From Dehalococcoidia bacterium (GTDB lineage: Bacteria; Chloroflexota; Dehalococcoidia; Lucifugimonadales; Australimonadaceae), in contig DAOUJX010000006.1 in assembly GCA_034422075.1 (NCBI GenBank), positions 462 to 64,461 of the forward strand: DNA of 64,000 nucleotides, written 5' to 3'. Numbering within the stretch: position 1 is the first letter of the stretch; each line of letters opens with the position of its first letter. Of the stretch, positions 4,867 to 63,013 are shown in pieces. The translations under genes and the position numbers were made by a program. A model generated the notes under the pieces. The model was not told the origin of the DNA and made no database searches. It was given only the letters and a program-made list of their open reading frames with translations.

Positions 4867-5317
4867 CGTCTTCCTCTGGTGGGGCCCAATGGGGCGAGAT
4901 TACCTAAACCGAGCACGGCCAAAATTAGTCGTTATATAAGAAACAGTCAATTAACTTTCTATGCATTTTCCGAATTATAGACCCAATTCATCACCGTATT
5001 TAGTAGTCTATAGACTGATAAATTGGCAGTAGTGTGTTGGATTATTCAAGCAGGTTGTGCCTGACATATGGTCAAATACTAAACTTTGTATAAAAGTTCA
5101 AAATGAGTGTCCAAAACCCTCGTCTTTCCATGCCGCCTCCTACCCATGTCTCGATGCGGGTAGTCGCTGCGCAGCTGGCGCCAGCAGGCGGTCAGGACGG
5201 GGCTAACCGCGCTCATGCTCTGCTGCTATACTCCGCTTTCGGCCTGCCCAGTCAGTAGTGGAGGACAGGCCAGATCCCACTGCTCCGCATGATGATTGCG
5301 GTCCGTATGGACGGGTG

Positions 5318-6502
5318 ATGGAACGCTACCAGTCGGAATTTGTGCCGCCTGCGCGTGTGCTCATGGGCGCAGGGCCGAGCAACGTCCACCCGCGCGTCAT
5401 CCGCGCGATGACCGCTTCGCTGCTCGGCCACATGGACCCCGACTTCCTACAGGTGCTGGACGACGTGAACGCGATGCTGCGCGTCGTGTTTCGCACCAGC
5501 AACGCCTTCACGTGGCCGGTTTCGGGCACTGGCACCGCCGGTATGGAGGCCGCCATCGTCAACATCGTCGAGCCGGGCGACACGGTGGTGGTCGCGGCCA
5601 ACGGCTACTTCGGCGAGCGTCTTTCCGAAATTGCGCGCAGGGCGGGCGCGAACGTCGCCACGGTGCACTTTGCGTACGGCGAGCCAGCCTCGTCTGAGCG
5701 CATCCGCGACGAGCTAACGCGCCACCGTTCGGTCAAGGCGGTCGCGGTCGTCCATGCCGAGACGTCCACCGGTGTGCTCTCGGACGTGAAGGCGGTGGCG
5801 GAGGCCGCGCACGACCATGGCGCACTCGTCATCGTCGACGCTGTTACCTCGCTGGGCGGAGTGGAGTTGCAGGTGGGCGCGTGGGACATCGACGTGGCCT
5901 ACTCGGGCACACAGAAGTGCCTGGCATGCCCGCCGGGGCTCGCACCCATAACGTTGAGCGAGCGGGCGGTCGAGACGCTCCGGCTCCGTAAGACGCCCGT
6001 CCAGAGCTACTACCTAGACATGAACCAGTTGCGCTCCTACTTCGAACTGCGTGGCTACCATCACACGGCACCCATCAGCAACCTCTACGGGCTGCGAGAG
6101 GGATTGCGGGTGCTCTTGGAAGAGGGCGTCGAGAATAGCTGGCGGCGGCATGCGCGCGCGGCGGACGGCCTACAGGCCGGCCTCGAGGCGATGGGCTTGA
6201 GCCTGTTCGCCAGCGAGCCGAATCGCCTGCCGTCGCTGACGACCATCAACGTCCCGGAAGGCGTCGACCCGGCGGCAGTCCGCAAGCATCTGCTCGACCG
6301 CCACAGCCTCGAGATCAGCTCCGGGTTGGGGGAGATTGCCAATTCCGTCTGGCGCGTGGGGCTGATGGGCTACAACGCAACGGAAACGAACGTCTTCCTG
6401 TTCCTCTCGGCGTTGGAGGAGGCACTGCTGGCGCAGAGCTTCGAACTACCGGCGGGCGCGAGCCTTGCGGCGGCGCAACGCGCGATGCTGAACGGCGCCT
6501 AA
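5318..6502 (+). CDS. Alanine-glyoxylate / serine-pyruvate aminotransferase family (class V PLP enzyme)
   Basis: LMGAGPSNV, VHAETSTGV, VDAVTSLGG, SGTQKCLACPPGL (PLP lysine), WRVGLMG; start ATG 5318 preferred. Confidence 0.9.
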   Translation: MERYQSEFVPPARVLMGAGPSNVHPRVIRAMTASLLGHMDPDFLQVLDDVNAMLRVVFRTSNAFTWPVSGTGTAGMEAAIVNIVEPGDTVVVAANGYFGERLSEIARRAGANVATVHFAYGEPASSERIRDELTRHRSVKAVAVVHAETSTGVLSDVKAVAEAAHDHGALVIVDAVTSLGGVELQVGAWDIDVAYSGTQKCLACPPGLAPITLSERAVETLRLRKTPVQSYYLDMNQLRSYFELRGYHHTAPISNLYGLREGLRVLLEEGVENSWRRHARAADGLQAGLEAMGLSLFASEPNRLPSLTTINVPEGVDPAAVRKHLLDRHSLEISSGLGEIANSVWRVGLMGYNATETNVFLFLSALEEALLAQSFELPAGASLAAAQRAMLNGA

Positions 6503-7278
6503 AGCTTTTCGGCGCGCAGCACCAGCACGTCCCAACCCCACCTGATCGTGTCATCGTCGCGCTCCATGGCGAACGCCGCAACGTGATCCGGCCCGACGTC
6601 GCGAAAGTCGACCTCCAACGCGCGCGTCTCCTCTTCAGACACGTGTGCGCGCGCACACCAGTCGACGAACTCCAGCCAGACCCTAGTCATTGCCGTATCA
6701 GTAACTCGCATGCCAGCCGCCTCGACGGAGCGCTGCCAGCCGATGGGTGAGCGATTGCGGACATGACTGGGATCGCGGCGTTCCTCCACTTCGTTCATCC
6801 AGTCGGCGATAGCCCTATCTTCGGGCGAAACGGTGTCGCAGAAGATGAAGACGCCGCGCGGCTCGAGAACGCGCGTGACCTCTGCGAGCCATGCGTCGGG
6901 GTCGAGGAAGTGGTGAGCGGCGGTACGGCAGGTGAGCAGGTCGATCGAGGCATCGCGGAAGGGCAGCGACTCAGCGGCGACGAGAACGCGCTCGACGCCC
7001 TTGATTTCGCGCTCCTTGGCGACGCGGGTCACCTGCGTCAGCATCTCGCGCGTCAGGTCAGTAGCGAGTACGGTGTCGGCAAACGGCACGGTGGCGAAAG
7101 CAGTGAAGCCGGGGCCGGTGGCAATATCGACCGCCGTGGCAAAGCGCCGCCCGTCTTTGGCCAACGCCTCTTCCACGAGGCGCAAGCTATCACCGGTCCG
7201 GTGCGCTGCGCTGGTGACGTAGTTCGCCGCCGTCGCGCCGAACTGCTGCTGTGATGAGCGTTGGGGGGGCTGTTGCAT
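6499..7278 (-). CDS. Class I SAM-dependent methyltransferase (UbiE/Methyltransf_11-like)
   Basis: VDIATGPGFTA, AESLPFRDASIDLLTCRTAAHHF, RDPSHVR; start ATG 7278 preferred. Confidence 0.85.
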   Translation of the reverse strand: MQQPPQRSSQQQFGATAANYVTSAAHRTGDSLRLVEEALAKDGRRFATAVDIATGPGFTAFATVPFADTVLATDLTREMLTQVTRVAKEREIKGVERVLVAAESLPFRDASIDLLTCRTAAHHFLDPDAWLAEVTRVLEPRGVFIFCDTVSPEDRAIADWMNEVEERRDPSHVRNRSPIGWQRSVEAAGMRVTDTAMTRVWLEFVDWCARAHVSEEETRALEVDFRDVGPDHVAAFAMERDDDTIRWGWDVLVLRAEKL

Positions 7279-7315
7279 GTGCGCATCATAGCGCGGACTG
7301 AGAGTGCCTGCGCGC

Positions 7316-8170
7316 CTACGCAGTTTCAACGACCAGCACACGCTCGCGGCCCGCTAGGTCATGAGCAGCTCGGATGCGCGCTTTGGGAAACGCAACTCTC
7401 GCGGCTGCCTGTGCCTCCACCATCTGCGCCGAATCGAGTTCGCAAATTAGCGCGCCGCCGTCGCGCATAGCGCCAGGTGCGGATGCAAGGAGTGCGCGCA
7501 CGAGGTCGAGGCCGTCATCGCCGCCGTCGAGCGCCTCGCGCGGCTCGTAGCGGCTCACTTCCGGCTCTAGGAGTGGGATTTGCGACGCCGGCACGTAGGG
7601 CAGGTTGGCGACGATGACATTGACGCGCTCCTGCAACGGCTCCAGCAGGCTTCCATGGTGCAAATGCACGCGTGCCGATACGGCGTGGCGCTCTGCGTTG
7701 CGTGCCGTCAGGTTGAGTGCCGCTTCCGAAATGTCGATGGCATGGATACGCGCGCTCGGCAGCGCGACGGCGAGCGCGATGCTGAGCACGCCGCTCCCGC
7801 AACCCACGTCGGCGATGACGGCGGATACTTCGCCGGGGGGCCGCAGCAGGCGCAAGGCCTCCTCCACCAGGCTCTCGCTGTCGGGACGGGGAATGAGGAC
7901 CCCTGGCGCGACTAGGAAGTCAAGGCCGTAGAACTCCCGCTGCCCCAATAGGTAAGCGATAGGCTCGCGACGCAGCCGGCGTTGGAGTAGCGCATCGACG
8001 GCTTCGCACCCCGCGTCGCCCTGCTCGTCACCCAAACGCGCATATAAGGCGGCGCGGTCGATGCCCAGGGAGCACATGAGAAGCAACTCCGCCTCGAGTT
8101 GCGCGTCACCGATGCCCGCACGGGCGAGGCGCCGCTCCGTCGAGCGGAGCAGCACACGCACCGTCGTCAC
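7316..8170 (-). CDS. prmC: Release factor glutamine methyltransferase PrmC (HemK)
   Basis: REPIAYLLGQREFYG, VLIPRPDSE, ADVGCGSG, ANLPY, ALDGGDDGL; overlaps prfA stop. Confidence 0.96.
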   Translation of the reverse strand: MTTVRVLLRSTERRLARAGIGDAQLEAELLLMCSLGIDRAALYARLGDEQGDAGCEAVDALLQRRLRREPIAYLLGQREFYGLDFLVAPGVLIPRPDSESLVEEALRLLRPPGEVSAVIADVGCGSGVLSIALAVALPSARIHAIDISEAALNLTARNAERHAVSARVHLHHGSLLEPLQERVNVIVANLPYVPASQIPLLEPEVSRYEPREALDGGDDGLDLVRALLASAPGAMRDGGALICELDSAQMVEAQAAARVAFPKARIRAAHDLAGRERVLVVETA

Positions 8171-9326: not shown

Positions 9327-10718
9327 GTGACGTCACTGCTATCGACCCGGCCTCGCAAGCGGCTACTGTTGGCGCTGCGCGCCGTGGTCGCCACAACTTT
9401 GCTCATTGCCGGGCTAACAGGCCTCGTGCGCGGCCAGTCGAGCGGCGGCGAAGCTGTCCTCATTCACCTGGACGATGCCGTCAACCCGACGACTGCCTCC
9501 TTTCTGGCCGGTGCGCTAGAAGAAGCGGTAGAGAACGGTGCGGTCGTAGCCATCGTGCGCATCGACACGCCGGGCGGGCGCGTTGATGCGATGCGAGATA
9601 TGGTCACCAGCCTGCTCGACGCCCAATTGCCGACTGTCGCCTATATCTCGCCTGCGGGAGCACGCGCGGCATCGGCGGGAACGTTTGTCACGGCGGCGGC
9701 GCACGTTGCGGCGATGGCGCCGGGCACCAACATAGGCGCCGCCTCACCCGTTGACACAACGGGCGAGGATCTGCCGGAGACGCTCGAGGGCAAGACGACG
9801 GAGGATCTGGCGGCGTTCATTCGCGAGGTCGCCGCCCTGCGAGGGCGCAACGCCGGCGCGCTAGAGGAAGCAGTACGCGAGGCCAAAGCCTACGGCGCTT
9901 CCGAAGCCGCCGAGCTAGGCGTCGTCGACCTAGTAGCAGTGGACGTGCCCGACCTATTGCGCCAGATTGACGGGCGCGCCTTCACCGTCAAAGCGGCTGA
10001 CGGCAGCGAGACGACGGTGACATTGCTGACAACAGGCCTAACGGTGACGGAGGTGCGCCCCACGCTGCTTAGCCGGATGCAGTCATTCCTTGCCGACCCC
10101 AGCATTGCCTACCTGTTACTCTCGCTCGGGTGGGTGCTGCTATGGGTGGAGGCGATAAGCGGCTTCTCCACTATCGTCGCTGGGCTGACGGGCGCTCTGC
10201 TGATGGGATTGGGCTTCGTGGGGCTGGTCAACCTGCCGTCGCAGTGGCTGGGCGCAGCGCTCATCGCGGCTGGAGTACTGCTGACCATCGGCGAGCTCAA
10301 CGTGGATGGATTCGGCGTGCTGGGGGGCGCGGCGATCATTGCCTTCATCGCCGGCTCCGTCGTCCTTCTGCTCCACTTCGGGACGCCGACGCCCGTGTGG
10401 AGTGGGCAGACGATCAACCTCGCCCTGTTTGTCCCGATCGTGAGCATTGTCACCGTAGGCGGCGGGCTAATGGTCTACAACATCGTCACCGCCCGGCGGC
10501 GCAAGTATCCTGTCGTTGCGCGGCGTATGCTTGTTGGAGCAACCGGGCGCACCAAGACGGCCTTATCGCCGGAAGGCGGCGTGTTCGTTCACGGGGAGGA
10601 CTGGCGCGGCAGGCTGGTAGGCGGTGGGCGCATCGAACGCGGGACTGAGGTCCGCATCGTCGGGGTGGACGGAGCCACGCTCCTCGTCACCCCTGCAGCA
10701 GAAGGGACTGGAACGTAG
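9327..10718 (+). CDS. nfeD: NfeD-family membrane-bound ClpP-class serine protease
   Basis: DTPGG, ARAASAG, AMAPGTNIGAASPV, TM region, C-terminal OB fold (VHGEDWRG); upstream of stomatin gene. Confidence 0.92.
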   Translation: MTSLLSTRPRKRLLLALRAVVATTLLIAGLTGLVRGQSSGGEAVLIHLDDAVNPTTASFLAGALEEAVENGAVVAIVRIDTPGGRVDAMRDMVTSLLDAQLPTVAYISPAGARAASAGTFVTAAAHVAAMAPGTNIGAASPVDTTGEDLPETLEGKTTEDLAAFIREVAALRGRNAGALEEAVREAKAYGASEAAELGVVDLVAVDVPDLLRQIDGRAFTVKAADGSETTVTLLTTGLTVTEVRPTLLSRMQSFLADPSIAYLLLSLGWVLLWVEAISGFSTIVAGLTGALLMGLGFVGLVNLPSQWLGAALIAAGVLLTIGELNVDGFGVLGGAAIIAFIAGSVVLLLHFGTPTPVWSGQTINLALFVPIVSIVTVGGGLMVYNIVTARRRKYPVVARRMLVGATGRTKTALSPEGGVFVHGEDWRGRLVGGGRIERGTEVRIVGVDGATLLVTPAAEGTGT

Positions 10719-10754
10719 CGAGAGAAGAGAGCGAGACGTTAAGGAGGATCTCAA

Positions 10755-11624
10755 ATGGTCTGGGGAGTAAACGTCATAAAGCAGTACGAGCGCATGATCG
10801 TGTTCACGTTCGGGCAGTACTCGGGGGTCCGCGGCCCGGGACTCCGCTGGCTATGGCCGTTCGTCAACAACGGCTCGTCGCGGGCGGACTTGCGCGAGGT
10901 GCCGATCCCGATTCCGCGTCAGACGAGCATTACGCGCGACAACGCACCCATCGACATCGACTTCTTCGTCTACATGCGCGTGCTGGAGGACAGGCCGGAG
11001 GATACGGTACTGCAGGTGAGCAACTTCGAGGCCGCAGCACAGGCGCTCGCCATGACCAGCCTGCGCGCTGTCATCGGCGAGATGGAAATCGACGAGGTGC
11101 TCTCCAAGCGCGAGGAGATCAACTCGCGTCTGCAGGTGAAGCTGGACGAGGTAACAGTGAACTGGGGCGTGAAGGTCACGCGCGTGGAGATACGCGAGGT
11201 CGAGCCGCCACGCGACGTGCAGGACGCGATGAACCGCCAGCTGTCGGCGGAACGCACACGGCGCGCAGCCGTCACTGAAGCGGAGGGCGAGCGCGACGCG
11301 GAGGTGAATCGTGCCGACGGCGAGAAGCGCGGCGCGATCTTGCGCGCGGAAGGCGCGCGCGAGTCGGCCATCCTTACTGCAGAGGGCGACCGTCAGGCAA
11401 CAATACTGCGCGCGGAAGGGTTCGCGCAGGCGCTCGAGCGCATCAACGCTGCCGCGAGCCAGGCCGACACGCGCACGATGAGCCTCCAGTACATGGAGAC
11501 GATGAAGGACATCGGCGCAAGTCCGTCGACCAAGTACATCTTCCCAATGGAGTTCACGAACCTGCTTGACCCCATCACCCGAATGACGCGCGGCGAGCGC
11601 CCTGACGGAGGGGAAGGAAACTAG
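10755..11624 (+). CDS. SPFH/band 7 (stomatin/QmcA-like) protein
   Basis: TSLRAVIGEMEIDEVLSKREEIN, WGVKVTRVEIREVEPP, coiled-coil AEG repeats; canonical nfeD-stomatin pair. Confidence 0.95.
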   Translation: MVWGVNVIKQYERMIVFTFGQYSGVRGPGLRWLWPFVNNGSSRADLREVPIPIPRQTSITRDNAPIDIDFFVYMRVLEDRPEDTVLQVSNFEAAAQALAMTSLRAVIGEMEIDEVLSKREEINSRLQVKLDEVTVNWGVKVTRVEIREVEPPRDVQDAMNRQLSAERTRRAAVTEAEGERDAEVNRADGEKRGAILRAEGARESAILTAEGDRQATILRAEGFAQALERINAAASQADTRTMSLQYMETMKDIGASPSTKYIFPMEFTNLLDPITRMTRGERPDGGEGN

Positions 11625-12891: not shown

Positions 12892-13446
12892 TTAGAGCAC
12901 TTCTTCCAGCAGATCTATGAACTTCTCCTTGTTGAGCAGGCCGGAGAAGCTGCGGTGGACGGCGCCGTCCGGGGTCAGGAAGATGGTGGTGGGCATGCCA
13001 AGAACTTCGAAATCACGGACAACCATCTCCTCGAACGTGGTGCCCGAGGGGTAGGTGATGCCCAGCTCGTCAAGCAGTGCCTGGCCGTCCTCACGCGTGC
13101 CCAGCAGCATGAAGGGGCCGATGTCTATACCAACGAGCAGGAAGTCGTCCGCACGCTCGTCATAGACCTCTTGGAAGTGCGGCATCTCGGCGCGGCAGGG
13201 GGGGCACAAGCCTGCCCAGAAGTTGAGGACGATCGGCTTGTCCGTGCGCTCAATCAACCGATGGAGGCTTACCTCCTCGCCACCAAAGACGTCCTGATTG
13301 TTGTAGGCGACGATGGTCACGTCGGGGACGCTAATCTCAGCATCGCTGCTGCCATTGCCGCCACCACAGGCGGAGCCAGCCCCAACGGTCGCCAGCGCGA
13401 GCACCAGCAGGGCGGCGCGGGCGCCTCTACGAAGACGCGGGGTCAT
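12892..13446 (-). CDS. TlpA/ResA-like thiol-disulfide oxidoreductase, probable lipoprotein
   Basis: VLNFWAGLCPPCRAEMP, GMPTTIFL (cis-Pro), N-terminal signal with AGSAC lipobox-like site. Confidence 0.9.
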   Translation of the reverse strand: MTPRLRRGARAALLVLALATVGAGSACGGGNGSSDAEISVPDVTIVAYNNQDVFGGEEVSLHRLIERTDKPIVLNFWAGLCPPCRAEMPHFQEVYDERADDFLLVGIDIGPFMLLGTREDGQALLDELGITYPSGTTFEEMVVRDFEVLGMPTTIFLTPDGAVHRSFSGLLNKEKFIDLLEEVL

Positions 13447-14570
13447 GCCCCGTCCTCCGGCGCGTGCAGTTCAGTGTCAGGGTAGAAATCGCTCCATGCA
13501 AACCAGAAGGAGACGAAGGAGCGGAGCTGCTGCAAGCGTTCACCCTTGAGCGGACCCGCGCTAGCCGAGCCGCTGAGGAGCGACCACGTTGAGCCGGTTT
13601 CGACGTCGCGCATAGCCTGTTGGTCAGGCTCGAATGTCAGGACACGTCCATCGGCGGGTGTGCGGCTGTAGACCGCGCTCGCAGCGGAATTGGGGTCGAA
13701 CACGACGACGATGGGCTGATCGCTGTAGGTGTCGTTGACGACGGGAGCAGATAGGAGTGAGCTGAAGTCGTAGGCGCGGGCGGTCTCGCCCCAATCGAGG
13801 CCGACAACGAGCTCTTTCGGCGGCAGGCGGTCGTCGGGATTGGTCTCGCCCTGTATGCCCGCTGAGTTGCGCAGGTAGTAGTCGTAGTACGGGTCGATTC
13901 GCGGCCCGCCGGAGAGGGAGCGATCGAGCAGCAGCGTGTCGGGGTGCTCCATCGACCAGCGCTCCCACGTCGTCAGTTGCGCAGGCAGCAGTTCCAGCTC
14001 CGTACCGGTTAGCGGCCCCTCGACCGCTTCGGTGAGGAACTGGCTCCAGAGCGTGTCGGTCTGATGATCGTAGAGCACCACGGCGTTCATGATCAGTTTA
14101 CCGGATACGCCGAAGGTGAGTTCCTTTCCCTCTATCTCGCGGGCAAAGACCATGCCCGTAAAGCAGAGCGGTCACCATGTCACCACGATGGGTCTGCCGC
14201 CGACAGTGTCGTTGACGACCTCGTGGGAAGAGAGCTGCGAGGTGGAGTAGGCGCGGTGGTCGCCGTCGATGGAGACGCCGATGACGAGGTCTTGCGGCAC
14301 CATTTGAGCGTCAGCCTCCGCGCCGCTGACGAATATGGGATTGAGGATGGCGGGAATGGCATCCTTGGGCAGCACCGTCCTGATGTCGAGCGAGCGGGCG
14401 GGCGTTGGCGTTGGCAGCGGCGCAATCGTGGGAGTCACCGTTGCAGGCGGCGTGGGCGTGGGCTCATCGCCGCCGTCGGACGTGGTGCAAGAGACGGCGG
14501 ATAGTAGGGCAATCGCACCGAACGCTACGGCGGCAGGGAGACCGCCGCGAGGCGGTGCTAGACGGCGCAC
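13443..14570 (-). CDS. DUF3179-family selenoprotein (UxxC), probable lipoprotein; one gene split by the ORF finder at an in-frame TGA
   Basis: ORFs 14172..14570 and 13443..14153 are in the same frame; read-through gives GRPIVVTW-U-PLCFTGMVFAR, matching the DUF3179 TxCPLC motif; SGKLIMNAVVLYDHQTDTLWSQ, FWFAW. Confidence 0.9.
14140..14158 (-). promoter_or_regulatory. Bacterial SECIS hairpin
   Basis: 13 nt after the TGA: CGGGCA-UGGUCUU-UGCCCG (6-bp stem, GGUCU in loop, resembling the E. coli fdhF SECIS apex GCAGGUCUGC). Confidence 0.8.
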
Positions 14571-16333
14571 TCGCCCTCGCCGCGCTCCAGCTTGTAAAGC
14601 ACCGTCTTGCCCCAGTCCATGTAGAAGTCGAGCGTGTCCTTGGAGAGCGGACCTATCTCCTTGAACTCGGCGAGTATGGCCTCGAATGCGTCGAGCCCCA
14701 CACGCTGGACGAAGTCGTTGAACTCCTCGCCCTGCGTGCGCTGGTCCTGGTAGTAGTCGAGCACCCGGCGCACGGCGGAAGGGACGTGCTTAGAGGGCAC
14801 CTTGACCTTGACGCGGTTGCCGTAGGCCAGCTGCCCTTCGTCATAGTGGCCGCCCAGGTAGACCTCGAACGCCGGTATCTGGTTGCCATCCGGCCCCTTG
14901 ATCGATGCGCCCTGAAAGCCGATGTGCGCCAGGTGATGGCGTCCGCAACCGTTGGGACACCCCGACGCCTTTATGTGTAGCTTCTTGACGAGCGGATCCT
15001 CCAGCAAGCCGTTCCAGCCGGCCATCGCGTCGGTGATCGCGCGATTGAGGCCCATCGACGACGTGATGCCCAGCTTGCACGAGTCGGTGCCCGGGCAAGC
15101 GGTCACATCGCTAATCGTGTGGACCTCTGCATCACCGAGGCCGATCCGCTCAAGCCCCTGCCAGACATCGTGAAGCTTGCCATCGGGCACCCAGCGCAGC
15201 GCGATGTTTTGCTCGGCGCCGAGAGCGATGGTGGAGGAGCCGTGCTCGCGAGCGAGTGCACCTAGCGCGTGGAACTGCTCGGGTGAGAGGTCGCCACGGG
15301 GCACCTTAGCGTAGACGACGTTGTAGCCTTGCTGCGTTTGGGCGAAGACGTTCGTCTGCTTCCAGAGCATATACGCCTTGACGTCACTGCCCGCGGCCGC
15401 GTCAGGGGCAAGAGACGGCGGCTCTTCCTGCGCGAAGGCCATGAGGGGTATCGGGTCGAAGTCGCCCTTGAGCGCCCACTCCTTCCCCAGCTCTTCTTCA
15501 ACGAGGGCGCGCACGGCGTCGATGCCCTTGCGGTGGATGAGCACCTTTATGCGCGCCATCATCTTGTTCTGGCGCAGCTCGTCGGCCTGGTTGAAGACGC
15601 GCAGCGCCGCCTCCGAGACGCGCAGGTAGTCATCGACAGGGACAAATTCGTAGAGCGTCGCGGCCTCCTTGGCCATGATGGAGGTGCCGCCGCCGATGAC
15701 CATCTTGAAGCCCTTGACGCCGTCGCGAACGCGCGCGACGAACCCAAGGTCGTGCATCCCAACGAGCGCCGGGTCGTGCTCGCCCGACGAGAAGGCCGTC
15801 TTGAACTTGCGCGGCATCGACTGCGTAACTGGATGGCGAACGAAGCGGCGCACAAAGGCGACGAGGTAAGGGGTGATGTCGAAGACCTGCTGAGGGTCGA
15901 CGCCGATCATGGGGTCGGCGATGACGTTGCGGACGGTGTTGCCGCACGCCTCGCGCGTACTCAGGCCCGCCTCGCCGAGCACGCGCATGACGGATGCAGC
16001 ATCTTCCAGCTTGATGTGGTGCAACTGGATGTTCTCACGAGTGGTGATATGCCCCCTCTTGAGTGGGGCGTAGCGCTCGACGACGTCGGCCATCGCGTCT
16101 AGCTGATCGGCAGTGCCGAGTCCGCCGGGAAACTTGATGCGCATCATCTGAGCGTCAGGCTGGCGCTGTCCGTAGACGCCGCGTCGCAGCCGCCACGGCT
16201 GGAACGTTGTTTCGTCAATGGCTCCCGATCGCAGGCGGGCGAGTTCCGCCTCAAACTCGTCGGGCTCGACCGCGAGGTAGGGGATGACACCCTTGGTGTT
16301 ATCCATCAGACCGGGTTGAGAGGGGGTGGCCAT
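14558..16333 (-). CDS. Siroheme/[4Fe-4S] sulfite (or nitrite) reductase, ferredoxin-type hemoprotein
   Basis: HITTRENIQ, ACGNTVRNV, PRKFK, CPGTDSC (Cx5C) and SGCPNGCG (Cx3C) ligands, C-terminal GEGECAV; start ATG 16333 preferred. Confidence 0.92.
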   Translation of the reverse strand: MATPSQPGLMDNTKGVIPYLAVEPDEFEAELARLRSGAIDETTFQPWRLRRGVYGQRQPDAQMMRIKFPGGLGTADQLDAMADVVERYAPLKRGHITTRENIQLHHIKLEDAASVMRVLGEAGLSTREACGNTVRNVIADPMIGVDPQQVFDITPYLVAFVRRFVRHPVTQSMPRKFKTAFSSGEHDPALVGMHDLGFVARVRDGVKGFKMVIGGGTSIMAKEAATLYEFVPVDDYLRVSEAALRVFNQADELRQNKMMARIKVLIHRKGIDAVRALVEEELGKEWALKGDFDPIPLMAFAQEEPPSLAPDAAAGSDVKAYMLWKQTNVFAQTQQGYNVVYAKVPRGDLSPEQFHALGALAREHGSSTIALGAEQNIALRWVPDGKLHDVWQGLERIGLGDAEVHTISDVTACPGTDSCKLGITSSMGLNRAITDAMAGWNGLLEDPLVKKLHIKASGCPNGCGRHHLAHIGFQGASIKGPDGNQIPAFEVYLGGHYDEGQLAYGNRVKVKVPSKHVPSAVRRVLDYYQDQRTQGEEFNDFVQRVGLDAFEAILAEFKEIGPLSKDTLDFYMDWGKTVLYKLERGEGECAV

Positions 16334-16392
16334 AAGGGCTCCTTGCCGTTGCACTGACGCTGGCTTCACCAACTAGCACGGGCTCTGATATC

Positions 16393-37674: not shown

Positions 37675-39714
37675 TTGCGCCTCCTAGGCGTGAGTAGGGA
37701 ATGCCAAGCCTCCACCGCGCCAATATACAACAGTGGGAGGGGAGGTTAGGAGTAGAGCCTGGGGCACCGGCTCTTCTATGCCGACTCGTACAGCCACGGG
37801 AGCATTACAGCCTATGTCAAACCAACGTTGAGCGGCCCAAAGACTCAGCATAGACGATCAGCGAAGTGATGGCTGCAAGACTGTTCACAGCGGTTGGGAA
37901 GTGAAGAGATTCTCGACGGCACTCCTGGAATAGTAGTCCCATGGAACTCTCGGCAAAACTGAGCAAGTGGAGATTCAGCAATTGCTGAGTCCTTACTGGT
38001 CACTGCTGTTGCCATGCCAGTTGCTATTCTGCTCATGGAAGCTGCACTTCTTGCAGTAACTGCCTATCGAGCTGGCTTGTCGGCAACCGAGATCTTGGGA
38101 AGCTTCATCTTCGGGTCCGCCGAACCGCTCGCCAAAGCCTACACAGGACCTTTCGTAGCTGGCCATGTCATCGTCGGCGTGCTTTGCTTCCCCCTCCAAT
38201 TCATCTGGTAAGGTGTGACCTCCAGCTGCCTAGCTGTTGGGATCTGTGCAAATGCATTGGCGCTAGGTCGGCTTCTACCTTCGTTAAATGCCGCCAAAAC
38301 AGTGCCACGATTTGAGCCTAACCGTGTCTTCGGATTCCGTACCGCATCCACATGATGGCTAAAGAGGCATCATCTATGGCGGCCGACACTTCTCAGTTGG
38401 AATGGAGTCGAGCCCTTCTTGTGCCTTGAGCAGGTACGCCTTCGGCTATCCTGAATTCGCGCAGCTCGTCGCGAAAAGGCATTGCCGCGAACAGGAGGAA
38501 GTTCATGAGGCTTCAAGTAGCGGCCATAGCTGGCGTCATTGGCTTCTATTGCCATGTCCATGCTTTGGGTCGTGCTATCGACCGTAGCCTTTCTGCAGGT
38601 ACGGGCTGGCTGCCATGTCACGAGGGCCTCGATTACAGCGGCGTCATTCTTCGAGTTTGCGCTGCGGGGCTTGTTCACCCCCGACTCCTCTAAGCGCGCT
38701 GCTTGCACGTCATTCGTCTTCGCTAGCCAGGCTCTCGGGACGACAGCCATTCTCTGAATGGCGTTTCCCATTTGTACCTTAGGACAGGGCCACCCCGACG
38801 TTCATTGATTCCGCAGTTTGTCCAACTGTTGCTTCCATCTTGGCTGCCCGCATGCACAACCTAATTCTTGATCTGCTCGACTTGAAAGATTACTGGCGCA
38901 CCTACGCCCGTGAGATTGAAGAACACGATGTGGGGCTCTGAAGTTGGGGGATGGGATTGCTTCTTGAACTTTCCTATGGCATCTATCAAGGCATCATCGG
39001 ATTTGTTGTAAGGGCCAGGACTCGGTTCTCCTACATCCCCCAAGATGGCTCTTCAAGCACGCATACACGGCATTCGCAGAGCCTCCTCGTCTGAGGTGTG
39101 AAGCGCCTTGGCACCTATCCAACTACCCGTTTCCAAGAATAGGTCAGGCGTTCCTTCTGCAGCCCAGAACTCCGGGGTTCCCAGGCCACGGTAGGGGCCC
39201 CTAGCAAATGCACAATCCTCCATAATCGCTGCACCCTTTGGTTATGTTGGCTGTTGCGGACGCTCTCCATCGGATACTCTCGCTTGACCTTAGCCCCCAA
39301 TGGTTGTTTCGCTCCATTCCTGAACTTTCCTAAGGGCCTCCGATAGGGCTTGCGTTTCCTGCCGTTGCTTGCTGGTTGCATTGGCGATCCAGCATTCGCC
39401 AGCAGTAACTGGATCGGGGACTCCAGGAGATACGCCACTCAAGAAATCACGTAGCGTTCCCTCCTCTCTCTGGCCTGCCGCTCGGTTTTGGACCACCGAT
39501 GTCGAGGGCCTGCAAGCGCCCCGTTTCACCCCGTGTCCTTAGCGAGATTCAGTTTCCCGATTTCACCGGTACCCAAGTACACCAGGCCCGATTCAGCCTT
39601 ACCCGGCCCCCAACCCCGCTCCCTCGAGCGTTGCGAGATAGTACTATGGCGCGGGGTGACTGCGGCCCGCCGCAGCACCCTAGATCCGAAGTACAGCCTT
39701 AGCGAGGAGCTGCA

Positions 39715-40248
39715 ATGATAGGCAGAATGCTGGGCGCGGCCCAACTGAAGGCCGCCACTTACGAAGAGGTGGAGCACGACCAGAGCGCCATGGTACAGGC
39801 GCTCCTCGTGGTGATCATTGTCACCATAGCTACCATTGTCGGCCAGCTCTTGGGGAGTACGGACGATGTCGACGCAGTGAGAGCGTTGGGCATCGGCATC
39901 GTGCGAGGAGTGGCGGGTTGGGCGCTGTGGGCGCTCGTCATCTGGATAATTGGGGGCGCGATACTGAAGACGGAGCACACCGAAGCCAACTGGGGACAGA
40001 TAGCGCGCGGCACTGGGTTCGCCCAGACTCCCGGCATCTTGAATGTGCTTGTCTTTATCTCGGCAATCGGCCTGCTCATCGGCCTGGTGACATTCGTCTG
40101 GACATTCGTGGCTACGCTCATTGCCGTACGTCAGACCCTTGACTACACGTCCACCTGGCGAGCGTTCTTCGTCATCCTGCTCGCCCTCATCCCGGTGGCC
40201 ATTCTGAACATCATCGTCTTCTTCCTCACGGGTGGGAGCATAGACTGA
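39715..40248 (+). CDS. YIP1-family membrane protein
   Basis: GAGGAG RBS; five hydrophobic segments, RGTGFAQTPG, AVRQTLDY. Confidence 0.75.
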   Translation: MIGRMLGAAQLKAATYEEVEHDQSAMVQALLVVIIVTIATIVGQLLGSTDDVDAVRALGIGIVRGVAGWALWALVIWIIGGAILKTEHTEANWGQIARGTGFAQTPGILNVLVFISAIGLLIGLVTFVWTFVATLIAVRQTLDYTSTWRAFFVILLALIPVAILNIIVFFLTGGSID

Positions 40249-42630: not shown

Positions 42631-43593
42631 CTAAAGCAGAATCCTCTCACTAATTTGCGTGCCGTTAGCATTTTCAAAAATAATGTCGTTCACTGCTGAA
42701 AGAGGTATGTCCCCCGCCTCGTATCTTTTGATGACCTCCTCGACTTCAGTTGGAGTATACAGGCCGCGGGCGGTTACGCGGGCTTTGAAGTCGCACCTCT
42801 CCCCTGCGATAGCTAATACCTGCTGTAGCGCCTTTTCAGCGCGTTCCCTCATTGACGACCTGAAGTGGAGGAATCGAAGTTCTCGCCAGTAGAAGTAATA
42901 GTCGCCCAGATTACGGTTTTCCCCGTAGTAGATTTCCCGAGCTGCCCACCCTATCGGAAGCGTGGCTTGCAGGATGCGAAGCCTTTGGGTCCGCGTGGCT
43001 TCACTAAAGTCAAACGCAGGTGTATTCCTGCGTTGCCCAGTCATCTTTTCCATGGCCCACTGGGGCATTAGGTTATCGTTAACATCGACCTCAACCAGGT
43101 CTTCGACTAACCTCTTGAGTAATCCGCTGGGATATTTTTCAGGAAGGTAAACATGAACCATGCATTTGTCATCTAGCTCAACCGTCTCGAGGTGCGGGTA
43201 GTTCGGCGATCCTGGCGATTCTGCGGTAGGTATCTCCTGGATCAGGTTGCCGTTTGTTGTTTTTCTCACGCCGTGGACGAGTACCGGTCTGAAAGGCAGC
43301 CCATCTCGGTCGTCGGGTGTGAATACCACTTCCAGCCACGCCTCGTGTTCTGTCAGGAGCGTGGTTGCCACAGAGCTAACAAAGCTGTCCGTCCCGCGTC
43401 CGTTATCCCACAGTGAGAGGGCCTTCTTGATCTGACTGCCGGATATTCCTTGGGCTGACAACTCGTACGCACCTCCCATGTCACGATGTGGGACAATGTG
43501 GAGATTGAAGTCCTCTAGGAGGAGGAACGTTTGGGTTGAATGATGCCATATCCCTGGTTCGCGTGGAAACCAACGTGAAGTACGGCTTGTCAT
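42631..43593 (-). CDS. Hypothetical 320-aa protein, possible phage-portal-like fold
   Basis: Long open frame with ATGA overlap to the upstream gene; segment pattern recalls HK97-type portals (see findings); unverified. Confidence 0.6.
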   Translation of the reverse strand: MTSRTSRWFPREPGIWHHSTQTFLLLEDFNLHIVPHRDMGGAYELSAQGISGSQIKKALSLWDNGRGTDSFVSSVATTLLTEHEAWLEVVFTPDDRDGLPFRPVLVHGVRKTTNGNLIQEIPTAESPGSPNYPHLETVELDDKCMVHVYLPEKYPSGLLKRLVEDLVEVDVNDNLMPQWAMEKMTGQRRNTPAFDFSEATRTQRLRILQATLPIGWAAREIYYGENRNLGDYYFYWRELRFLHFRSSMRERAEKALQQVLAIAGERCDFKARVTARGLYTPTEVEEVIKRYEAGDIPLSAVNDIIFENANGTQISERILL

Positions 43594-46193
43594 GAGAGGC
43601 CGTCCTGCGTGTCGTCGAAAACGGTCTCTGCGGCTTCGTCATTCCCGTTGTCATTCTGTGCAGTCATAGAGTCCTTCTTCTCGAAATAGTGTCGTAGGCT
43701 ACGGCGGTTTCTCAGGGTATCCTCTGCTTCTCCACTAAGTGGTCCGATTATCTCTGCAGCGAAAATAGTGCGAGGTTTCAGAAATATTGACCGCAATTGT
43801 TCAGTTACACCAAGCATCTTGATGAGTGGTGGCGCATTCCAGGCAGGCTGCTCTTCAACGAAAGGAATGAATTCGGGAGCCGCAAATCCAGCCTCAACAA
43901 TTTTGCCAGTTAGGTGGATTTCCCAATCAGTCCTCGCTACATCCCTTGGTGAGATATTCAGCGAGGTATAGCCATCTTTCAGTTCTAGCCAATCCAAGAT
44001 CCGCCTTGCGGCCTGGTCTGGTTGAGGAAACGACTGGATACGGTTTATCCAAGCTTGGCGGATAGGGATGTCCGACTGGTCGCCCCGAAGCGTCGCGTAT
44101 ATGATTGCTAGTCCAGAGAGCTCAAGGATATCAACGGTTGGGTCCAAGATGGAGGCATTCACTTGGTGGGTTGGGGCCTGATAGGTTGAGAGTACGTGGT
44201 TCTGCAAGACAAGGCTGGCGGACAGGGCCTTAGGGAAGACCGCCTTAACCAAGGCGACATCTCCGGTCGCAATCGCTTCCTCTGTGTGGTGAATGAGGAT
44301 AAATGAGGCTTCACCAAATAGGTCTGGTTCGGACTTTGTTTGGTCCGGTCGAAGCTGTGTAAGGGCCTCGGCGATTCGCTGAAGGACTTCTGTTCTGCAG
44401 GTTTTCACAAGCTGGCCTATCTCTTCGAATTCCTCGGTCTCTTGCCGGTCGCCTCCCACACGCAGAGTTTCAAGGGCATCTGCTGCTTGAGGTAGGGCGC
44501 CAGCGATGAGCTGGACTTTCACGAGAGCTTGAAGGGCTTGTGACCCTGCCATGGCGTTGACTTCTGGCGACAGACCCGTAGAGGTTGGCTTGAGAAAGCT
44601 ATCTAGATGCTTGGGGAGCTCCTTGGCGAACTCTCGAAGTGAGAAGATACACACGTTCGCCAAGGCAAACCTTAGATACCAGTCAGGAGTCCCGCGGCGT
44701 CCCTGAATGTCTTGCTCCGCTTTAACTTCGCTTAGTAACTGCTGAGCGGCCTTCCACACGCGGTCAGAGCCACGGACTCGGACTGTATTCGTGGTCCTGT
44801 GGTCCCACTTGGTATCATTGACGACCGCCTTAATCACATCCGGCCAGTCGATAATAGCTTCTCGCCATCCCAAGAGGAGACTTGTCAGAAACAGAGGAGG
44901 CGCTGCAGCTGCAGCGACCGCCGCAGGGTTCTCTACCTCAATGCTCCAGCAGCGGTCTCTAACAATGGCTGAAAATGCGATGGCATCATCAATGCGGTAG
45001 TTTTTCGCCAAGATGTGAGCCGTCGTCGCAACTTGGTTTGTGATTCGGAGGACCGAGTTTCGATCATTCGCGTCAACGCAAGCCTCTAGAGCGGTTGAGG
45101 CAACCTCCGCCGACCGCCTTTCGAGCCAGCTAGTCGAAGGCTCCAAACGGGCCTGAAGCGGGGTTGAAGTCTGCAGTGCCATAGAAGTCTCTGAATGGCT
45201 GGCTTCTACCCACTTTGGGTAAACGGGTTCTCGAATGAACCACTCGCTAGTCGGAGCCAGCAAGTGTTTCCTCTGAGCATAGTGTTGAACGAGGGCAAGA
45301 AGCTTTTCGACCATATCAACAAGGCGTTCTCGGTCAACTGAACCACGGGAGCTAGTCAAGCCTATGAGTTCTGCCAAGACTAGCAATGCTCCATTTGCTT
45401 CTAGAGAAGCAACTCGTAACACTGCTTCGTTTTTGCCTAGTCCCTCCGAGCCGAGTCGGTCAATTGCTCTATACAGTGCCAGTAGCGGCACCCGGCCAAG
45501 CACAATCGGGTCGAATAGATTGAAAGCACCAATAGCGAGTCGAAAGAATGCCCAGCCACTGAATACGACCAAAAGACCGTAGCCGGCCACTGTGAAGTAT
45601 CCGTACGGTATCCCCAAGCTCTGCAGCAAAATAAGCGATAGGCCAGCGCCAATGGCTATGCCAACTGACTTTAGGTACAATCCTACACTGGGACTTCCAA
45701 GCACCAACTCTCTTACATTAGCTGAGACGTTGCTGTACGATTGGCCTAATACGATGCTTACGCTAGCGAGGTAAAATCCCAAGAGACTCGCCGAGACTTG
45801 GACCGCTAGAGTTGGGAATGTCCCTAGTGGTGGAATCGGCTCTTCTGACGGAATGAGATTAGGCCAAAAGTACTGGGCCAGAAGAAACTCTGTTAGTAGG
45901 AGAGTGGCGAAGAGGGTAGCTCCAATGAGGAAAGCGCGAATTAGCAAAAAGAAAGAACTTCTGATTATTCCTATATCGCGCCAGAAGAAATCAACAAGAG
46001 AGCCAATACGGTATCTCTGTGCGATGATCCGGAGTCTGCCAGAAGCGGCCCTCTCTCGATTGAGCCAGTAGTCCTCCGTTGACTGCTCTCTTACTCGGCG
46101 ACCCAGATTGCGAGCCTTAGAGCCGAAAGGCCAGCGGCACTCTGCTCTAGCCTCTTTCAGAATGGCCATGTATTCCCGAAACACCGTTTTCAT
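43590..46193 (-). CDS. Hypothetical 867-aa protein, N-terminal 4-TM (DUF2254-like) region + large helical cytoplasmic region
   Basis: Four hydrophobic segments within residues ~80-230, remainder soluble and Ala/Leu/Glu-rich; no catalytic motif recognised. Confidence 0.7.
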   Translation of the reverse strand: MKTVFREYMAILKEARAECRWPFGSKARNLGRRVREQSTEDYWLNRERAASGRLRIIAQRYRIGSLVDFFWRDIGIIRSSFFLLIRAFLIGATLFATLLLTEFLLAQYFWPNLIPSEEPIPPLGTFPTLAVQVSASLLGFYLASVSIVLGQSYSNVSANVRELVLGSPSVGLYLKSVGIAIGAGLSLILLQSLGIPYGYFTVAGYGLLVVFSGWAFFRLAIGAFNLFDPIVLGRVPLLALYRAIDRLGSEGLGKNEAVLRVASLEANGALLVLAELIGLTSSRGSVDRERLVDMVEKLLALVQHYAQRKHLLAPTSEWFIREPVYPKWVEASHSETSMALQTSTPLQARLEPSTSWLERRSAEVASTALEACVDANDRNSVLRITNQVATTAHILAKNYRIDDAIAFSAIVRDRCWSIEVENPAAVAAAAAPPLFLTSLLLGWREAIIDWPDVIKAVVNDTKWDHRTTNTVRVRGSDRVWKAAQQLLSEVKAEQDIQGRRGTPDWYLRFALANVCIFSLREFAKELPKHLDSFLKPTSTGLSPEVNAMAGSQALQALVKVQLIAGALPQAADALETLRVGGDRQETEEFEEIGQLVKTCRTEVLQRIAEALTQLRPDQTKSEPDLFGEASFILIHHTEEAIATGDVALVKAVFPKALSASLVLQNHVLSTYQAPTHQVNASILDPTVDILELSGLAIIYATLRGDQSDIPIRQAWINRIQSFPQPDQAARRILDWLELKDGYTSLNISPRDVARTDWEIHLTGKIVEAGFAAPEFIPFVEEQPAWNAPPLIKMLGVTEQLRSIFLKPRTIFAAEIIGPLSGEAEDTLRNRRSLRHYFEKKDSMTAQNDNGNDEAAETVFDDTQDGLS

Positions 46194-51438: not shown

Positions 51439-53166
51439 CTACAGGACAGCCGCCCCCTCTATAGGACTGGATTCCATCCGGTGGAAGAGCGAGTCCCACC
51501 GGTAGGCCCGCAGGCCGGACAGCGCCAGGCGGGGAGACTCCGGTTCCCACAACGGCCGCCACGACCTTCGAAGTATCCCCGTGCGGTCCAGCACGGGGAT
51601 ACTCGATACCAGGATGGGCAGCGACATCCGGTTCATCCGGTCGACGGTGCGCACGTAGGTGTCCTCCACCTCCTCGGTACCCACCACGAACAGCGTGACG
51701 GGGAACGGCGGCTGGTCCTCGCCCGGTTCGTTCGACCAGTAGTAGCTTCTGTAGGGAAGCAGGCGGGCGATAACCCCCTGCGGATGCCGGGCGCGCAACT
51801 CATGCTCGAGGTAGAACGGTATCCCAAGTCCATCGGCGGTCATCTGACCCACGGCGTCGGGGGCGATGGCGGAGCGGCCCCAGTTGTAGGCCCGGTCGGA
51901 ACGGGCGGTGGGAACGGACCACTCCAGTGCAGAACGCGGGGCGTCTCTGGTCTCTGCCTTAAGCTGCGAGAGGAACCAAGTGATGCCGTCGGCGTGCTTC
52001 GTCTGCCGCGCCCACGTCTCGATCCGGTGGCCCACGTGACGGCGACGGCCCTGTCTGTCGGTGGTGAGGGCTGTGCTCCAGGCACCCCGCGTGGTCGGCA
52101 GCTCGGCGCGGTCCCGGTGCGTGACGTAGCGGATGCCCTCGTTGGACAGCGTGTAGCGGCTGTCCCCGCGTTTGCCCCGGCGCTCGATGAGGCCCCAGGT
52201 CTTCACAAGGCCGTGCAGAATCTGGCTGATTCTTCCTTTGGAAACACCAAGCCATAGAGCCAGGTGCTCGCGGGGGATCATCGGGTAGTCGGTGATGAGG
52301 TCCAGCGTGCGCTTCTCCGAAGGCGTGAGGCCGAAGGCCGGCGAGGCCTGCATCATCCGCTCGGGCCGGGGTAGGGAGGCGCGTTTGCGCTCTGGCGATG
52401 CCGCTCGACTTCCTCCGCCCCCGCTACGGCTCGCCTCGGCGATGACGCCCTCCAATGTGCGGTACCGCCCACCAATCAGGAACCAGGTACTCAGCCAGAC
52501 GTGGCCGCCTCGTCTCTCCAGCGCCTCCCGCGACTCCACGGCGACGAAGCAGCCCCGGAGGTCCCGCTGCTCGCAGAACTGCGCCGTCAACCGCTGCTCC
52601 CAGACGCTGGGAACGAGGACCAGGACCATGCCTGGGCGGCGCCGGTAGTCGTACTCCGCTATGGCCCTCAGCCGGTCGTAGAGCGACCTTCGGCGCAGGG
52701 CCAGACCCTGACGCACTACGCCGAAGCTGTCGCCGTCGTGCAGGGTGATGGTGGCGTCGAAGCGGCCACGGCGATGGAACTCCACGCGAGTGCGCAGCCG
52801 CCCGTCACCGCCGGGGGAAAGTGATGAGGCCAGGCGATAGACGGAAGCCGCGGCGTCCATCCGGCGTAACAGCAGCGTCAGCCACTCCCTCGACATCGGG
52901 TAGGCCCGCACGAAGTCCGAGGGCGTGTCGAAGCCCAGGACCTCAGCGGCCTGCCTGATGCCCTTCGCCGTCAGGCAGTATCGACCGCTCGGCGGCAGGT
53001 GGGCGGTGCCGTGGATGACACGCTCGACTACGCCGACATCCAGCAGGCCGGTCAGGTGGCGGTGGACGGTCGAGTGCGGCTCGCCGAGGATGAGCGCCAG
53101 CTCCGTCGATTCGACGAACGGCATCCGGCTGAGGAAATGAAGCAACTGTCGGTCGGTGAGGCGCAT
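51439..53166 (-). CDS. Replication-relaxation family protein, tandem duplicated domain
   Basis: Two wHTH-led halves (LLHFLSRMPFV...YCLTAKG; TLDLITDYPMI...YTLSNEG); second half has HADGITWF, IAPDAVG, FYLEHE. Confidence 0.72.
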   Translation of the reverse strand: MRLTDRQLLHFLSRMPFVESTELALILGEPHSTVHRHLTGLLDVGVVERVIHGTAHLPPSGRYCLTAKGIRQAAEVLGFDTPSDFVRAYPMSREWLTLLLRRMDAAASVYRLASSLSPGGDGRLRTRVEFHRRGRFDATITLHDGDSFGVVRQGLALRRRSLYDRLRAIAEYDYRRRPGMVLVLVPSVWEQRLTAQFCEQRDLRGCFVAVESREALERRGGHVWLSTWFLIGGRYRTLEGVIAEASRSGGGGSRAASPERKRASLPRPERMMQASPAFGLTPSEKRTLDLITDYPMIPREHLALWLGVSKGRISQILHGLVKTWGLIERRGKRGDSRYTLSNEGIRYVTHRDRAELPTTRGAWSTALTTDRQGRRRHVGHRIETWARQTKHADGITWFLSQLKAETRDAPRSALEWSVPTARSDRAYNWGRSAIAPDAVGQMTADGLGIPFYLEHELRARHPQGVIARLLPYRSYYWSNEPGEDQPPFPVTLFVVGTEEVEDTYVRTVDRMNRMSLPILVSSIPVLDRTGILRRSWRPLWEPESPRLALSGLRAYRWDSLFHRMESSPIEGAAVL

Positions 53167-53384: not shown

Positions 53385-53684
53385 CTACCTCGCTATGTCG
53401 TGCTGTCTCCAGTCGGGCACGTGCGCCGTCATGAGCGCCTTGAAGAGTTTCCCGTGGTTTGGAACTCGCAGGTGTAGTAACTCGTGTGCGATTACAAAGT
53501 TCTGGAATTCAACATCTTGATTGCCCAGATCGGCCGCGAGAGTGATCGTTCCAGCCGTCGAGCAGGAGCCCCACTTGCGGTTCATGCCCTGGACTCGCAC
53601 GCGCGGTGCGGGTACGTGGAGGCGCTCCGCCCAATGCTCTACCCGTTGCCGCAGTGCCTCCGAACTGTCGTCACGCCTCGGCAT
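53385..53684 (-). CDS. YgjP/DUF45-like Zn metallopeptidase (short form)
   Basis: [21 protein letters not shown] (HExxH); usual position after hsdR. Confidence 0.88.
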
Positions 53685-62933: not shown

Positions 62934-62939
62934 GTTTGT

Positions 62940-62968
62940 AGTATAGGCACTGCAGGCCAATGGGTCAA
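62940..62968 (-). promoter_or_regulatory. Strong sigma70-type promoter for the hsdM operon, probably leaderless
   Basis: TTGACC (62968-62963)-N17-TATACT (62945-62940), 6 nt, then ATG 62933; no RBS. Confidence 0.75.
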
Positions 62969-63013
62969 CGGCAGTATGCACTAATCCTTGTGTGACGGTG
63001 CGAGAAGGAAGAC

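Follow-up and report, generated by a model that had tools for sequence, protein, structure and literature searches.

Here we report that a 64-kb stretch of DNA (hereafter the window), taken from a metagenome assembly of an uncultured Dehalococcoidia bacterium (Chloroflexota), very probably carries at 13443..14570 a single gene for a selenoprotein of the DUF3179 family, in which UGA would be recoded as selenocysteine (Sec) by way of a downstream bacterial Sec insertion sequence (SECIS). The gene lies on the minus strand, where sequence and translation give one frame from a GTG start at 14570 to a TGA stop at 13445-13443, with a single in-frame TGA at 14174-14172. This codon is preceded by ...NDTVGGRPIVVTW and followed by PLCFTGMVFAREIEGKELTFGVSGK... 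(in shorter form, ...GGRPIVVTW, then TGA, then PLCFTGMVFAREIEG...). We infer Sec as the residue inserted at the UGA from comparison of sequences.

A mechanical list of open reading frames (ORFs) presents this gene as two pieces, 14172..14570 (132 aa) and 13443..14153 (236 aa). The first-pass annotation had read these as one frame interrupted by TGA, which standard annotation would split or truncate, and it was right on both counts. The fused 375-aa product, with U written as C, matches positions 1-292 of the 292 in the Pfam model PF11376 (DUF3179; 301 bits, E 1.2e-89, cut-off 27), and the alignment columns run unbroken across the TGA; the match is end to end, and the two ORFs are parts of one domain. 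Public gene calls on the source contigs make the same split into 132 aa and 236 aa, with PF11376 matched by both pieces, and no NCBIfam model matches the DUF3179 product. Protein searches returned two classes of relatives, namely full-length proteins of ~345-430 aa with 41-56% identity, and dozens of proteins of 232-244 aa with 55-91% identity, all of which start with MVFAR... and are therefore shortened at one common point. A scan of the window for TGA-interrupted coding frames using G+C content at third codon positions (GC3) identified the DUF3179 gene and one further candidate at 53929-53931, which we discounted as weak and short.

The in-frame TGA stands where homologues carry the first Cys of CPLC, as had been claimed from the sequence alone, giving U-P-L-C: the motif [W/Y/F]-C-P-L-C occupies the aligned site in all 44 full-length database homologues retrieved. 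A genome scan using one genome per GTDB species produced 80 loci, all from Chloroflexota metagenome-assembled genomes (MAGs) or single-amplified genomes (SAGs), which belong mostly to Dehalococcoidia and otherwise to Tepidiformaceae, Ardenticatenaceae, Promineifilaceae, Anaerolineales and SAR202. Opposite the window TGA, 79 of these (48-93% aa identity) likewise have TGA and the remaining one (L044) has TGT, so that alignment to DUF3179 homologues, the check proposed at the outset, finds either Cys or a TGA codon at the site. An orthologue on the chromosome OZ220670.1 is 93% identical, and TGA forms again predominated when Joint Genome Institute (JGI) metagenomes were scanned with Cys-type proteins as seeds.

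A TGA in metagenome-derived sequence could in principle mark a pseudogene or a sequencing or assembly error, that is, a recent nonsense mutation or a miscalled Cys codon, and it is one substitution away from both TGT and TGC. However, five contigs that were assembled independently, each from another sample, encode the identical protein with its TGA (among them ENA ERZ23495130 scaffold_27 of 485,553 bp and ERZ25072353 contig_2 of 189,871 bp), and the TGA is kept not only in the 79 species genomes but across 139 distinct sequences, with synonymous divergence (dS) among the carriers reaching about 1. The ratio of nonsynonymous to synonymous divergence (dN/dS) is 0.1-0.4 both upstream and downstream of the TGA, pointing to purifying selection on both halves, and the TGA forms alone carry a covarying hairpin. 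These comparative data effectively refute an error or a pseudogene, to which we assign next to no probability.

The hairpin begins after 13 nt (CCGCUCUGCUUUA) downstream of the TGA. In the published model of the bacterial SECIS, the loop is 3-9 nt and the stem 4-16 bp, a G stands at the first or second loop position, the UGA-loop distance is 16-37 nt, and the minimum free energy (MFE) is at most -7.5 kcal/mol (PMC13188914, Fig. 2A). The window hairpin lies within all of these limits, with a 7-nt loop (U-G-G-U...), a 6-bp stem, a UGA-to-loop distance of 19 nt and a local energy of -10.8 kcal/mol. Over 61 nt the MFE is -20.3 kcal/mol (z = -2.0), a value matched or bettered by 6 of 200 shuffles, and the extended lower helix that appears when the window is folded alone is not conserved and was dropped from the consensus. 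In relatives, the 74 nt around the TGA align without gaps in 80 Sec-type sequences, from which RNAalifold derives a single consensus helix that coincides with the window hairpin; 96.8% of its cells are paired, none of 500 shuffles reaches the observed score, and when the 3' partner is shifted by 1-3 columns merely 14-51% of cells pair. The stem varies between CGGGCA/UGCCCG (the majority form), CGGCCA/UGGCCG, CGGGAA/UUCCCG, CGGCUA/UAGCCG, CUGGCA/UGCCAG and CGGGCG/CGCCCG. Some of the compensatory swaps alter the encoded peptide, from FTGIVYAR to FTAIVYGR or ...YSR, as would be expected from selection on RNA pairing but not from selection on the protein, and the DUF3179 data offer a clear example of a coding-region SECIS that constrains protein sequence.

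Across all fetched DNA, the 139 distinct Sec-type sequences form six of six in-register pairs in 122 cases, five in 15 and four in 2, whereas the 15 distinct Cys-type sequences form between one and five, and the mean local folding energy is -10.65 kcal/mol for Sec-type against -4.69 kcal/mol for Cys-type sequences. The corresponding Mann-Whitney tests (p = 3.5e-19 for pairs, 7.7e-7 for energy) overstate independence owing to kinship among the sequences, although the contrast itself is clear. The hairpin that the first-pass annotation called a clear SECIS therefore withstood scrutiny, since it fits the model, covaries in Sec-type relatives and is absent from the 15 Cys-type ones. The GGUCU apex likened to that of fdhF is likewise present in the window sequence (the E. 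coli fdhF apex is CAGGUCUGC, with UGA at codon 140); family-wide, the loop keeps GU only (NGUNN), and this GU is also part of a Val codon.

Several observations nevertheless count against the recoding of this gene. Within the window, 7.8% of the 1,726 TGA trinucleotides precede a comparable hairpin (G+C-rich, at least 6 bp, G at the loop start), so the hairpin alone is weak evidence, and support beyond chance comes from the comparison with relatives only. The double compensatory changes in that comparison, found at 4 of the 6-7 pairs, amount to 19 cells, a tally of cells in related sequences rather than of independent events. Moreover, the 64-kb window contains no selA, selB, selD or tRNA-Sec gene. 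Searches against Rfam matched no family, and no SECIS family, over the whole window at gathering thresholds, and for the 201 nt around the TGA at E up to 10 they returned merely a chance HTH-XRE match on the opposite strand.

Two variations on the hairpin were seen among the relatives. One subfamily (YTAIVYDR; loci L108, L116, L120-L123, L125, L130, L140, L142, L147, L148, L155, L158, L160 and L163) has the stem CGGCCA/UGACCG, with a fixed C.A mismatch and often an extra basal A-U pair; this is either a wobble, tolerated or protonated, or a sign that the SECIS geometry differs slightly here. A Cys-type sequence (L132:1085, TGT) keeps five of the six hairpin pairs (CGGCCG-UGGUUUU-CAGCCG), perhaps because Sec gave way to Cys there recently and the SECIS is now decaying.

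It could also be supposed that UGA is a true stop and that the 236-aa ORF is started separately at the AUG at 14153, so that two polypeptides are made. This ATG, of which one base closes the 5' arm and two open the loop, lies 7 codons past the TGA and is the start used by gene callers; furthermore, under selenium limitation, termination at the UGA probably yields some 132-aa fragment. On the other hand, about three quarters of the Sec-type orthologues have Val or Ile (ATH, which does not serve as a start codon) in place of the internal Met (FTGIVYAR), and most orthologues would therefore lack a downstream start. The C-terminal piece would have neither an export signal nor the conserved UxxC loop, the Cys-type homologues are single chains, and the Pfam domain is continuous over the TGA, all of which makes separate initiation a very improbable account of the gene.

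The case for recoding also depends on a Sec pathway in the host. ARAGORN detected no tRNA in the window and no tRNA-Sec in the window plus 60 loci, a miss that is not decisive because tRNA-Sec of Chloroflexi can adopt an unusual 8/4 structure (PMC5389517). Similarly, tblastn with E. coli SelA and SelB gave no match in the window plus 169 loci (1.2 Mb), while SelD matched in that same DNA at L006, L087-L089 and L171 only. The selD homologue of L006 is 40.6% identical to E. coli SelD (E 2e-70) and lies about 4.5 kb from a Sec-type DUF3179 gene. It sits in a syntenic series of FtsH, selD, JAB, PDZ, RecO and adenine glycosylase genes, which in both L006 and L087 continues into a TlpA-like gene and DUF3179; in L087, a 280,712-bp contig on which the order is the same, selD is ~4 kb from the orthologue, and L171 has the same Sec-type selD without the DUF3179 pair. 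These selD genes themselves have an in-frame TGA, followed about 20 nt downstream by a covarying hairpin of 7-8 bp with a compensatory change between contigs (GGAUCUC-GGC-GAGAUCC versus GGACCUC-GGC-GAGGUCC). All 120 of the best SelD database relatives are truncated at the N terminus (about 304-315 aa) and are thereby recognisable as Sec-type too. The Sec trait and tRNA-Sec have been documented in Chloroflexi (PMC1794560, PMC5389517), and the source genome of one of our loci (L052) is in the top-ten list of BSepDB with 46 selenoprotein genes (PMC13326102), a database that requires at least two Sec-pathway genes for inclusion (PMC13326102). Judging from these relatives, the organism of the window presumably has SelA, SelB, SelD and tRNA-Sec.

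Decoding of the UGA as something other than Sec, either by near-cognate insertion of Cys or Trp or through genome-wide reassignment of UGA, is favoured to the extent that Sec insertion and the sel genes of the window genome are deduced rather than observed. Reassignment conflicts with the use of TGA to end 10 of the 33 long ORFs of the window, the DUF3179 gene included, and we take UGA not to be reassigned on this ground. The hairpin, in addition, fits the SelB-dependent bacterial SECIS model, relatives carry a Sec-type selD with a SECIS of its own, and Sec in place of the first Cys of CxxC is the usual pattern of bacterial selenoproteins, reported for DUF3179 as well. We accordingly leave only a slight chance to non-Sec decoding, and Sec insertion remains by far the preferred explanation.

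Tandem paralogues were encountered at several loci. In L071, a Sec-type DUF3179 gene at 5749-6849 (TGA and hairpin) is directly followed by a Cys-type copy at 6941-8053 (WCPVCFTAL, TGT) that has no hairpin, making these a natural Sec/Cys pair in one locus. In L019 (~4900-5510), and at the same place in L020, L025, L033 and L042, the full-length Sec gene is immediately preceded by a short DUF3179 paralogue whose match stops after the first half of the domain (query residues 74-215). This paralogue too contains an in-frame TGA (VTY, then TGA, then PLCDTGVVYAR), with the hairpin CGGGCG-UGGUCUA-CGCCCG in the same register, and these five loci therefore seem to hold a second Sec-containing DUF3179 member in tandem.

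With respect to the protein itself, the suggestion that it is probably exported stands as a prediction. The N terminus is hydrophobic and lipobox-like, although the lipobox is non-canonical in having Ala at -3, and behind it a linker rich in Pro and Thr extends to about residue 58. A lipobox is seen in 26 of 80 orthologues and a hydrophobic anchor in 42 others, hence one or the other in 68; the 12 with neither are mostly mis-chosen starts or truncated loci. The DUF3179 domain contains an internal duplication, residues ~81-216 aligning with ~229-366 at 27-37% identity (tblastn), and the C/UxxC loop is kept in the first repeat only. Other conserved positions of the protein are E, N, D, R, W and Q (residues 117, 120, 121, 144, 175 and 177 in the window product). 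An AF2 model of the Cys-type homologue P0003 (53-56% identical) is mainly beta, with a predicted local distance difference test (pLDDT) score of 89.

We propose that during translation the UGA at 14174-14172 would be recoded as Sec, with the hairpin at 14158-14140 acting as a bacterial SECIS that brings SelB with Sec-tRNA(Sec) to the ribosome and allows insertion of Sec instead of termination. The product of ~375 aa would carry a U-P-L-C centre where Cys-type homologues carry C-P-L-C, and would be an exported, mainly beta domain of two repeats, held in place by an anchor of the lipid or membrane kind. Because Sec sits first in the sole conserved CxxC, the UxxC loop is marked as the likely functional centre, and the export signal together with a TlpA-like partner suggests extracytoplasmic redox or metal chemistry. 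In the redox version, the UxxC selenylsulfide or selenol-thiol couple would form an extracytoplasmic redox centre held reduced by the TlpA-like thioredoxin lipoprotein, which would be co-transcribed. We consider the chances of this redox role, deduced from the UxxC motif and the TlpA-like neighbour, to be evenly balanced.

What tells against the redox role is the scarcity of functional landmarks. DUF3179 has no characterised member, and a search of the PDB by sequence found no relative of it. A Foldseek search of the PDB with the P0003 model gave Rieske domains as best matches, weakly (probability ~1, E 0.01-0.1, target-normalised TM-score about 0.6 over ~95 residues). An adjacent, co-oriented TlpA-like gene downstream is restricted to the nearest clade, namely the 8 closest of the 80 genome loci plus L087, and clustering of the neighbourhoods of the 80 loci yielded no conserved partner beyond it. 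We take the CPLC loop to be reminiscent of the CPCH of Rieske box II; an identity as a Rieske [2Fe-2S] protein is nevertheless not borne out, as CxxC alone is conserved, His ligands are not (that of LSxHE varies), and the profile comparison was negative (hhalign probability 0.6%), and we retain the resemblance merely as a lead.

The main alternative for function is that the UxxC, instead of catalysing thiol or selenol-disulfide exchange, binds a soft metal or metalloid, such as Cu(I), Hg or selenium species, and so serves to traffic or detoxify it outside the cytoplasm. The published tables that list DUF3179 also include metal handlers among the UxxC/CxxC selenoproteins (MerT-like, heavy-metal ATPase and CobW-like), the domains that the fold search matched, if weakly, have a metal centre, a sulfite/nitrite-reductase-like gene lies upstream, and selD is about 4 kb away in two relatives. 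Against it, the Rieske ligands and profile are wanting, and the sole recurrent partner is a thiol:disulfide oxidoreductase, which speaks for redox upkeep of the site but is compatible with a metal site too. TlpA is known to reduce ScoI and CoxB. We rate metal binding as rather unlikely, below the redox role.

Coordinates of the DUF3179 gene, its elements, its neighbours and related features are collected in the following table.

Features of the window and of related loci (positions refer to the window unless a locus is named)
Feature	Position	Strand	Basis or remark
Putative Sec-containing DUF3179 coding sequence	13443..14570	-	375 codons including Sec; single frame, PF11376 match, dN/dS
In-frame TGA, probable Sec (residue 133, motif U-P-L-C)	14172..14174	-	TGA at aligned codon in relatives; Cys in full-length homologues
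Candidate SECIS hairpin	14140..14158	-	5' arm CGGGCA 14158-14153, loop UGGUCUU 14152-14146, 3' arm UGCCCG 14145-14140
Predicted N-terminal export signal VRRLAPPRGGLPAAVAFGAIALLSAVSC	14487..14570	-	lipobox-like A-V-S-C, from translation; prediction
TlpA/ResA-like thioredoxin-fold lipoprotein, motif CPPC (WAGLCPPC)	12892..13446	-	Pfam AhpC-TSA, Thioredoxin, Redoxin above cut-offs
NirA/sulfite-reductase-like gene	14558..16372	-	Pfam NIR_SIR, NIR_SIR_ferr; upstream of DUF3179
Sec-type selD (relatives)	L006:7095-8135 (-); L087:~9911-10939; L171:~9899-10939		in-frame TGA at E. coli Cys17 position
UvrD-like helicase	47786-50644		low-G+C stretch
Replic_Relax/MarR protein	51439-53166		low-G+C stretch
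Schlafen/AlbA_2 protein	56769-58196		low-G+C stretch
Type I restriction-modification	HsdR 53671-56664; HsdS 59797-61095; HsdM 61092-62981		low-G+C stretch

The ATG of the TlpA-like gene shares bases with the stop of DUF3179 (ATGA), an overlap suggestive of translational coupling. On present sequence evidence this neighbour is a family-level relative of TlpA/ResA and not an equivalog, its NCBIfam scores being far below the cut-offs (ResA 59.5 against 170, TlpA 38.3 against 230, and StoA also far below). On the other side, the stop of the NirA-like gene overlaps the GTG start of DUF3179 by 13 nt, and the two may belong to the same operon; this gene is found upstream in L001, L002, L003 and L005 only. 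A class-V aminotransferase (Aminotran_5; cysteine desulfurase/selenocysteine lyase-type fold) lies about 7 kb off at 5258-6502. The NirA-like and Aminotran_5 genes might conceivably be linked to the metabolism of sulfur or selenium, but nothing supports this, and a selenium or sulfur metabolic role argued from the NirA-like neighbour and the proximity of selD was set aside because both are too patchy. Elsewhere in the window, the stretches 42000-64000 and 38000-40000 are lower in G+C (53-59%, versus about 64% elsewhere), and with the genes tabulated above this region looks like a mobile or defence island; two large ORFs in it (42631-43593 and 43590-46193) are without annotation.

The first-pass annotation described the selenoprotein as hidden, which is true of the gene, mis-annotated and split as it is, but not of the family, since DUF3179 is tabulated as a UxxC/T selenoprotein family (PMC9312934, 2022; PMC13188914, 2026). 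Both sources credit the DUF3179 selenoprotein to Zhang and Gladyshev (2007, NAR 35:4952), who worked on the Olavius symbiont metagenome. The U-P-L-C of the window agrees with the published motif, in which Sec takes the first position of CxxC/T and for which MBW1804167.1 and MDJ0986319.1 are the published examples, and it is on this motif and the common Pfam family that membership rests. Documentation already exists for the family, for its motif and for the mechanism of recoding, and the window gene adds a mis-annotated member. BSepDB (2026) lists 57,630 bacterial selenoproteins, with Dehalococcoidia MAGs included (PMC13326102), and may already contain Sec-type DUF3179 proteins from Chloroflexota. 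The two tabulating papers (PMC9312934, PMC13188914) contain no discussion of Chloroflexota as a phylum, and describe neither the SECIS covariation, nor the partner resembling TlpA, nor how nearly universal the Sec form is in close relatives from this phylum; dominance of the Sec form in Chloroflexota, the pairing with a TlpA-like protein and SECIS covariation that alters the protein may be under-described.

On a practical level, users should be aware that the window gene and dozens of database entries appear either as two fragments or as a shortened 232-244-aa protein, and that joining the pieces yields a corrected protein and flags the organism as a selenium user. More speculatively, the Sec form could be dominant over many marine and terrestrial metagenome Chloroflexota (Dehalococcoidia including SAR202, Tepidiformaceae and Anaerolineae relatives) as a signature exported selenoprotein, serving as client or terminal catalyst of a TlpA-type extracytoplasmic selenol electron relay, with the SECIS driving paired amino acid swaps (G..A to A..G). 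We put this forward tentatively, thinking it somewhat more likely to fail than to hold; if true, it would provide a tractable route to the function of DUF3179 and to the reason why selenium is spent outside the cytoplasm.

Comparison with known systems places the window gene closest to the published DUF3179 selenoproteins, with which it shares the Pfam domain, Sec as the first residue of a CxxC-type motif, a SECIS just after the UGA and the existence of Cys homologues; the difference lies in the host, here an uncultured member of the Dehalococcoidia (Chloroflexota) and there a deltaproteobacterial symbiont. The hairpin resembles the E. coli fdhF and consensus SECIS in being a stem-loop within the coding sequence just 3' of the UGA, with G and then G/U starting a small apical loop. 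In contrast to these, the stem in the window family is conserved over merely 6-7 bp, and the RNAalifold consensus has no conserved lower helix or bulged U. Any likeness of the DUF3179 model to Rieske [2Fe-2S] domains would be at the level of the fold at most. Finally, as in TlpA/ResA systems, a thioredoxin-fold protein of lipoprotein type, bearing a CxxC (CPPC) motif, seems to be translationally coupled to an exported CxxC/UxxC protein, and the gene order of the window is what one would expect for a reductase with its client. Here, however, the client would be a DUF3179 protein rather than cytochrome c, ScoI or CoxB, in a pairing particular to the nearest clade.

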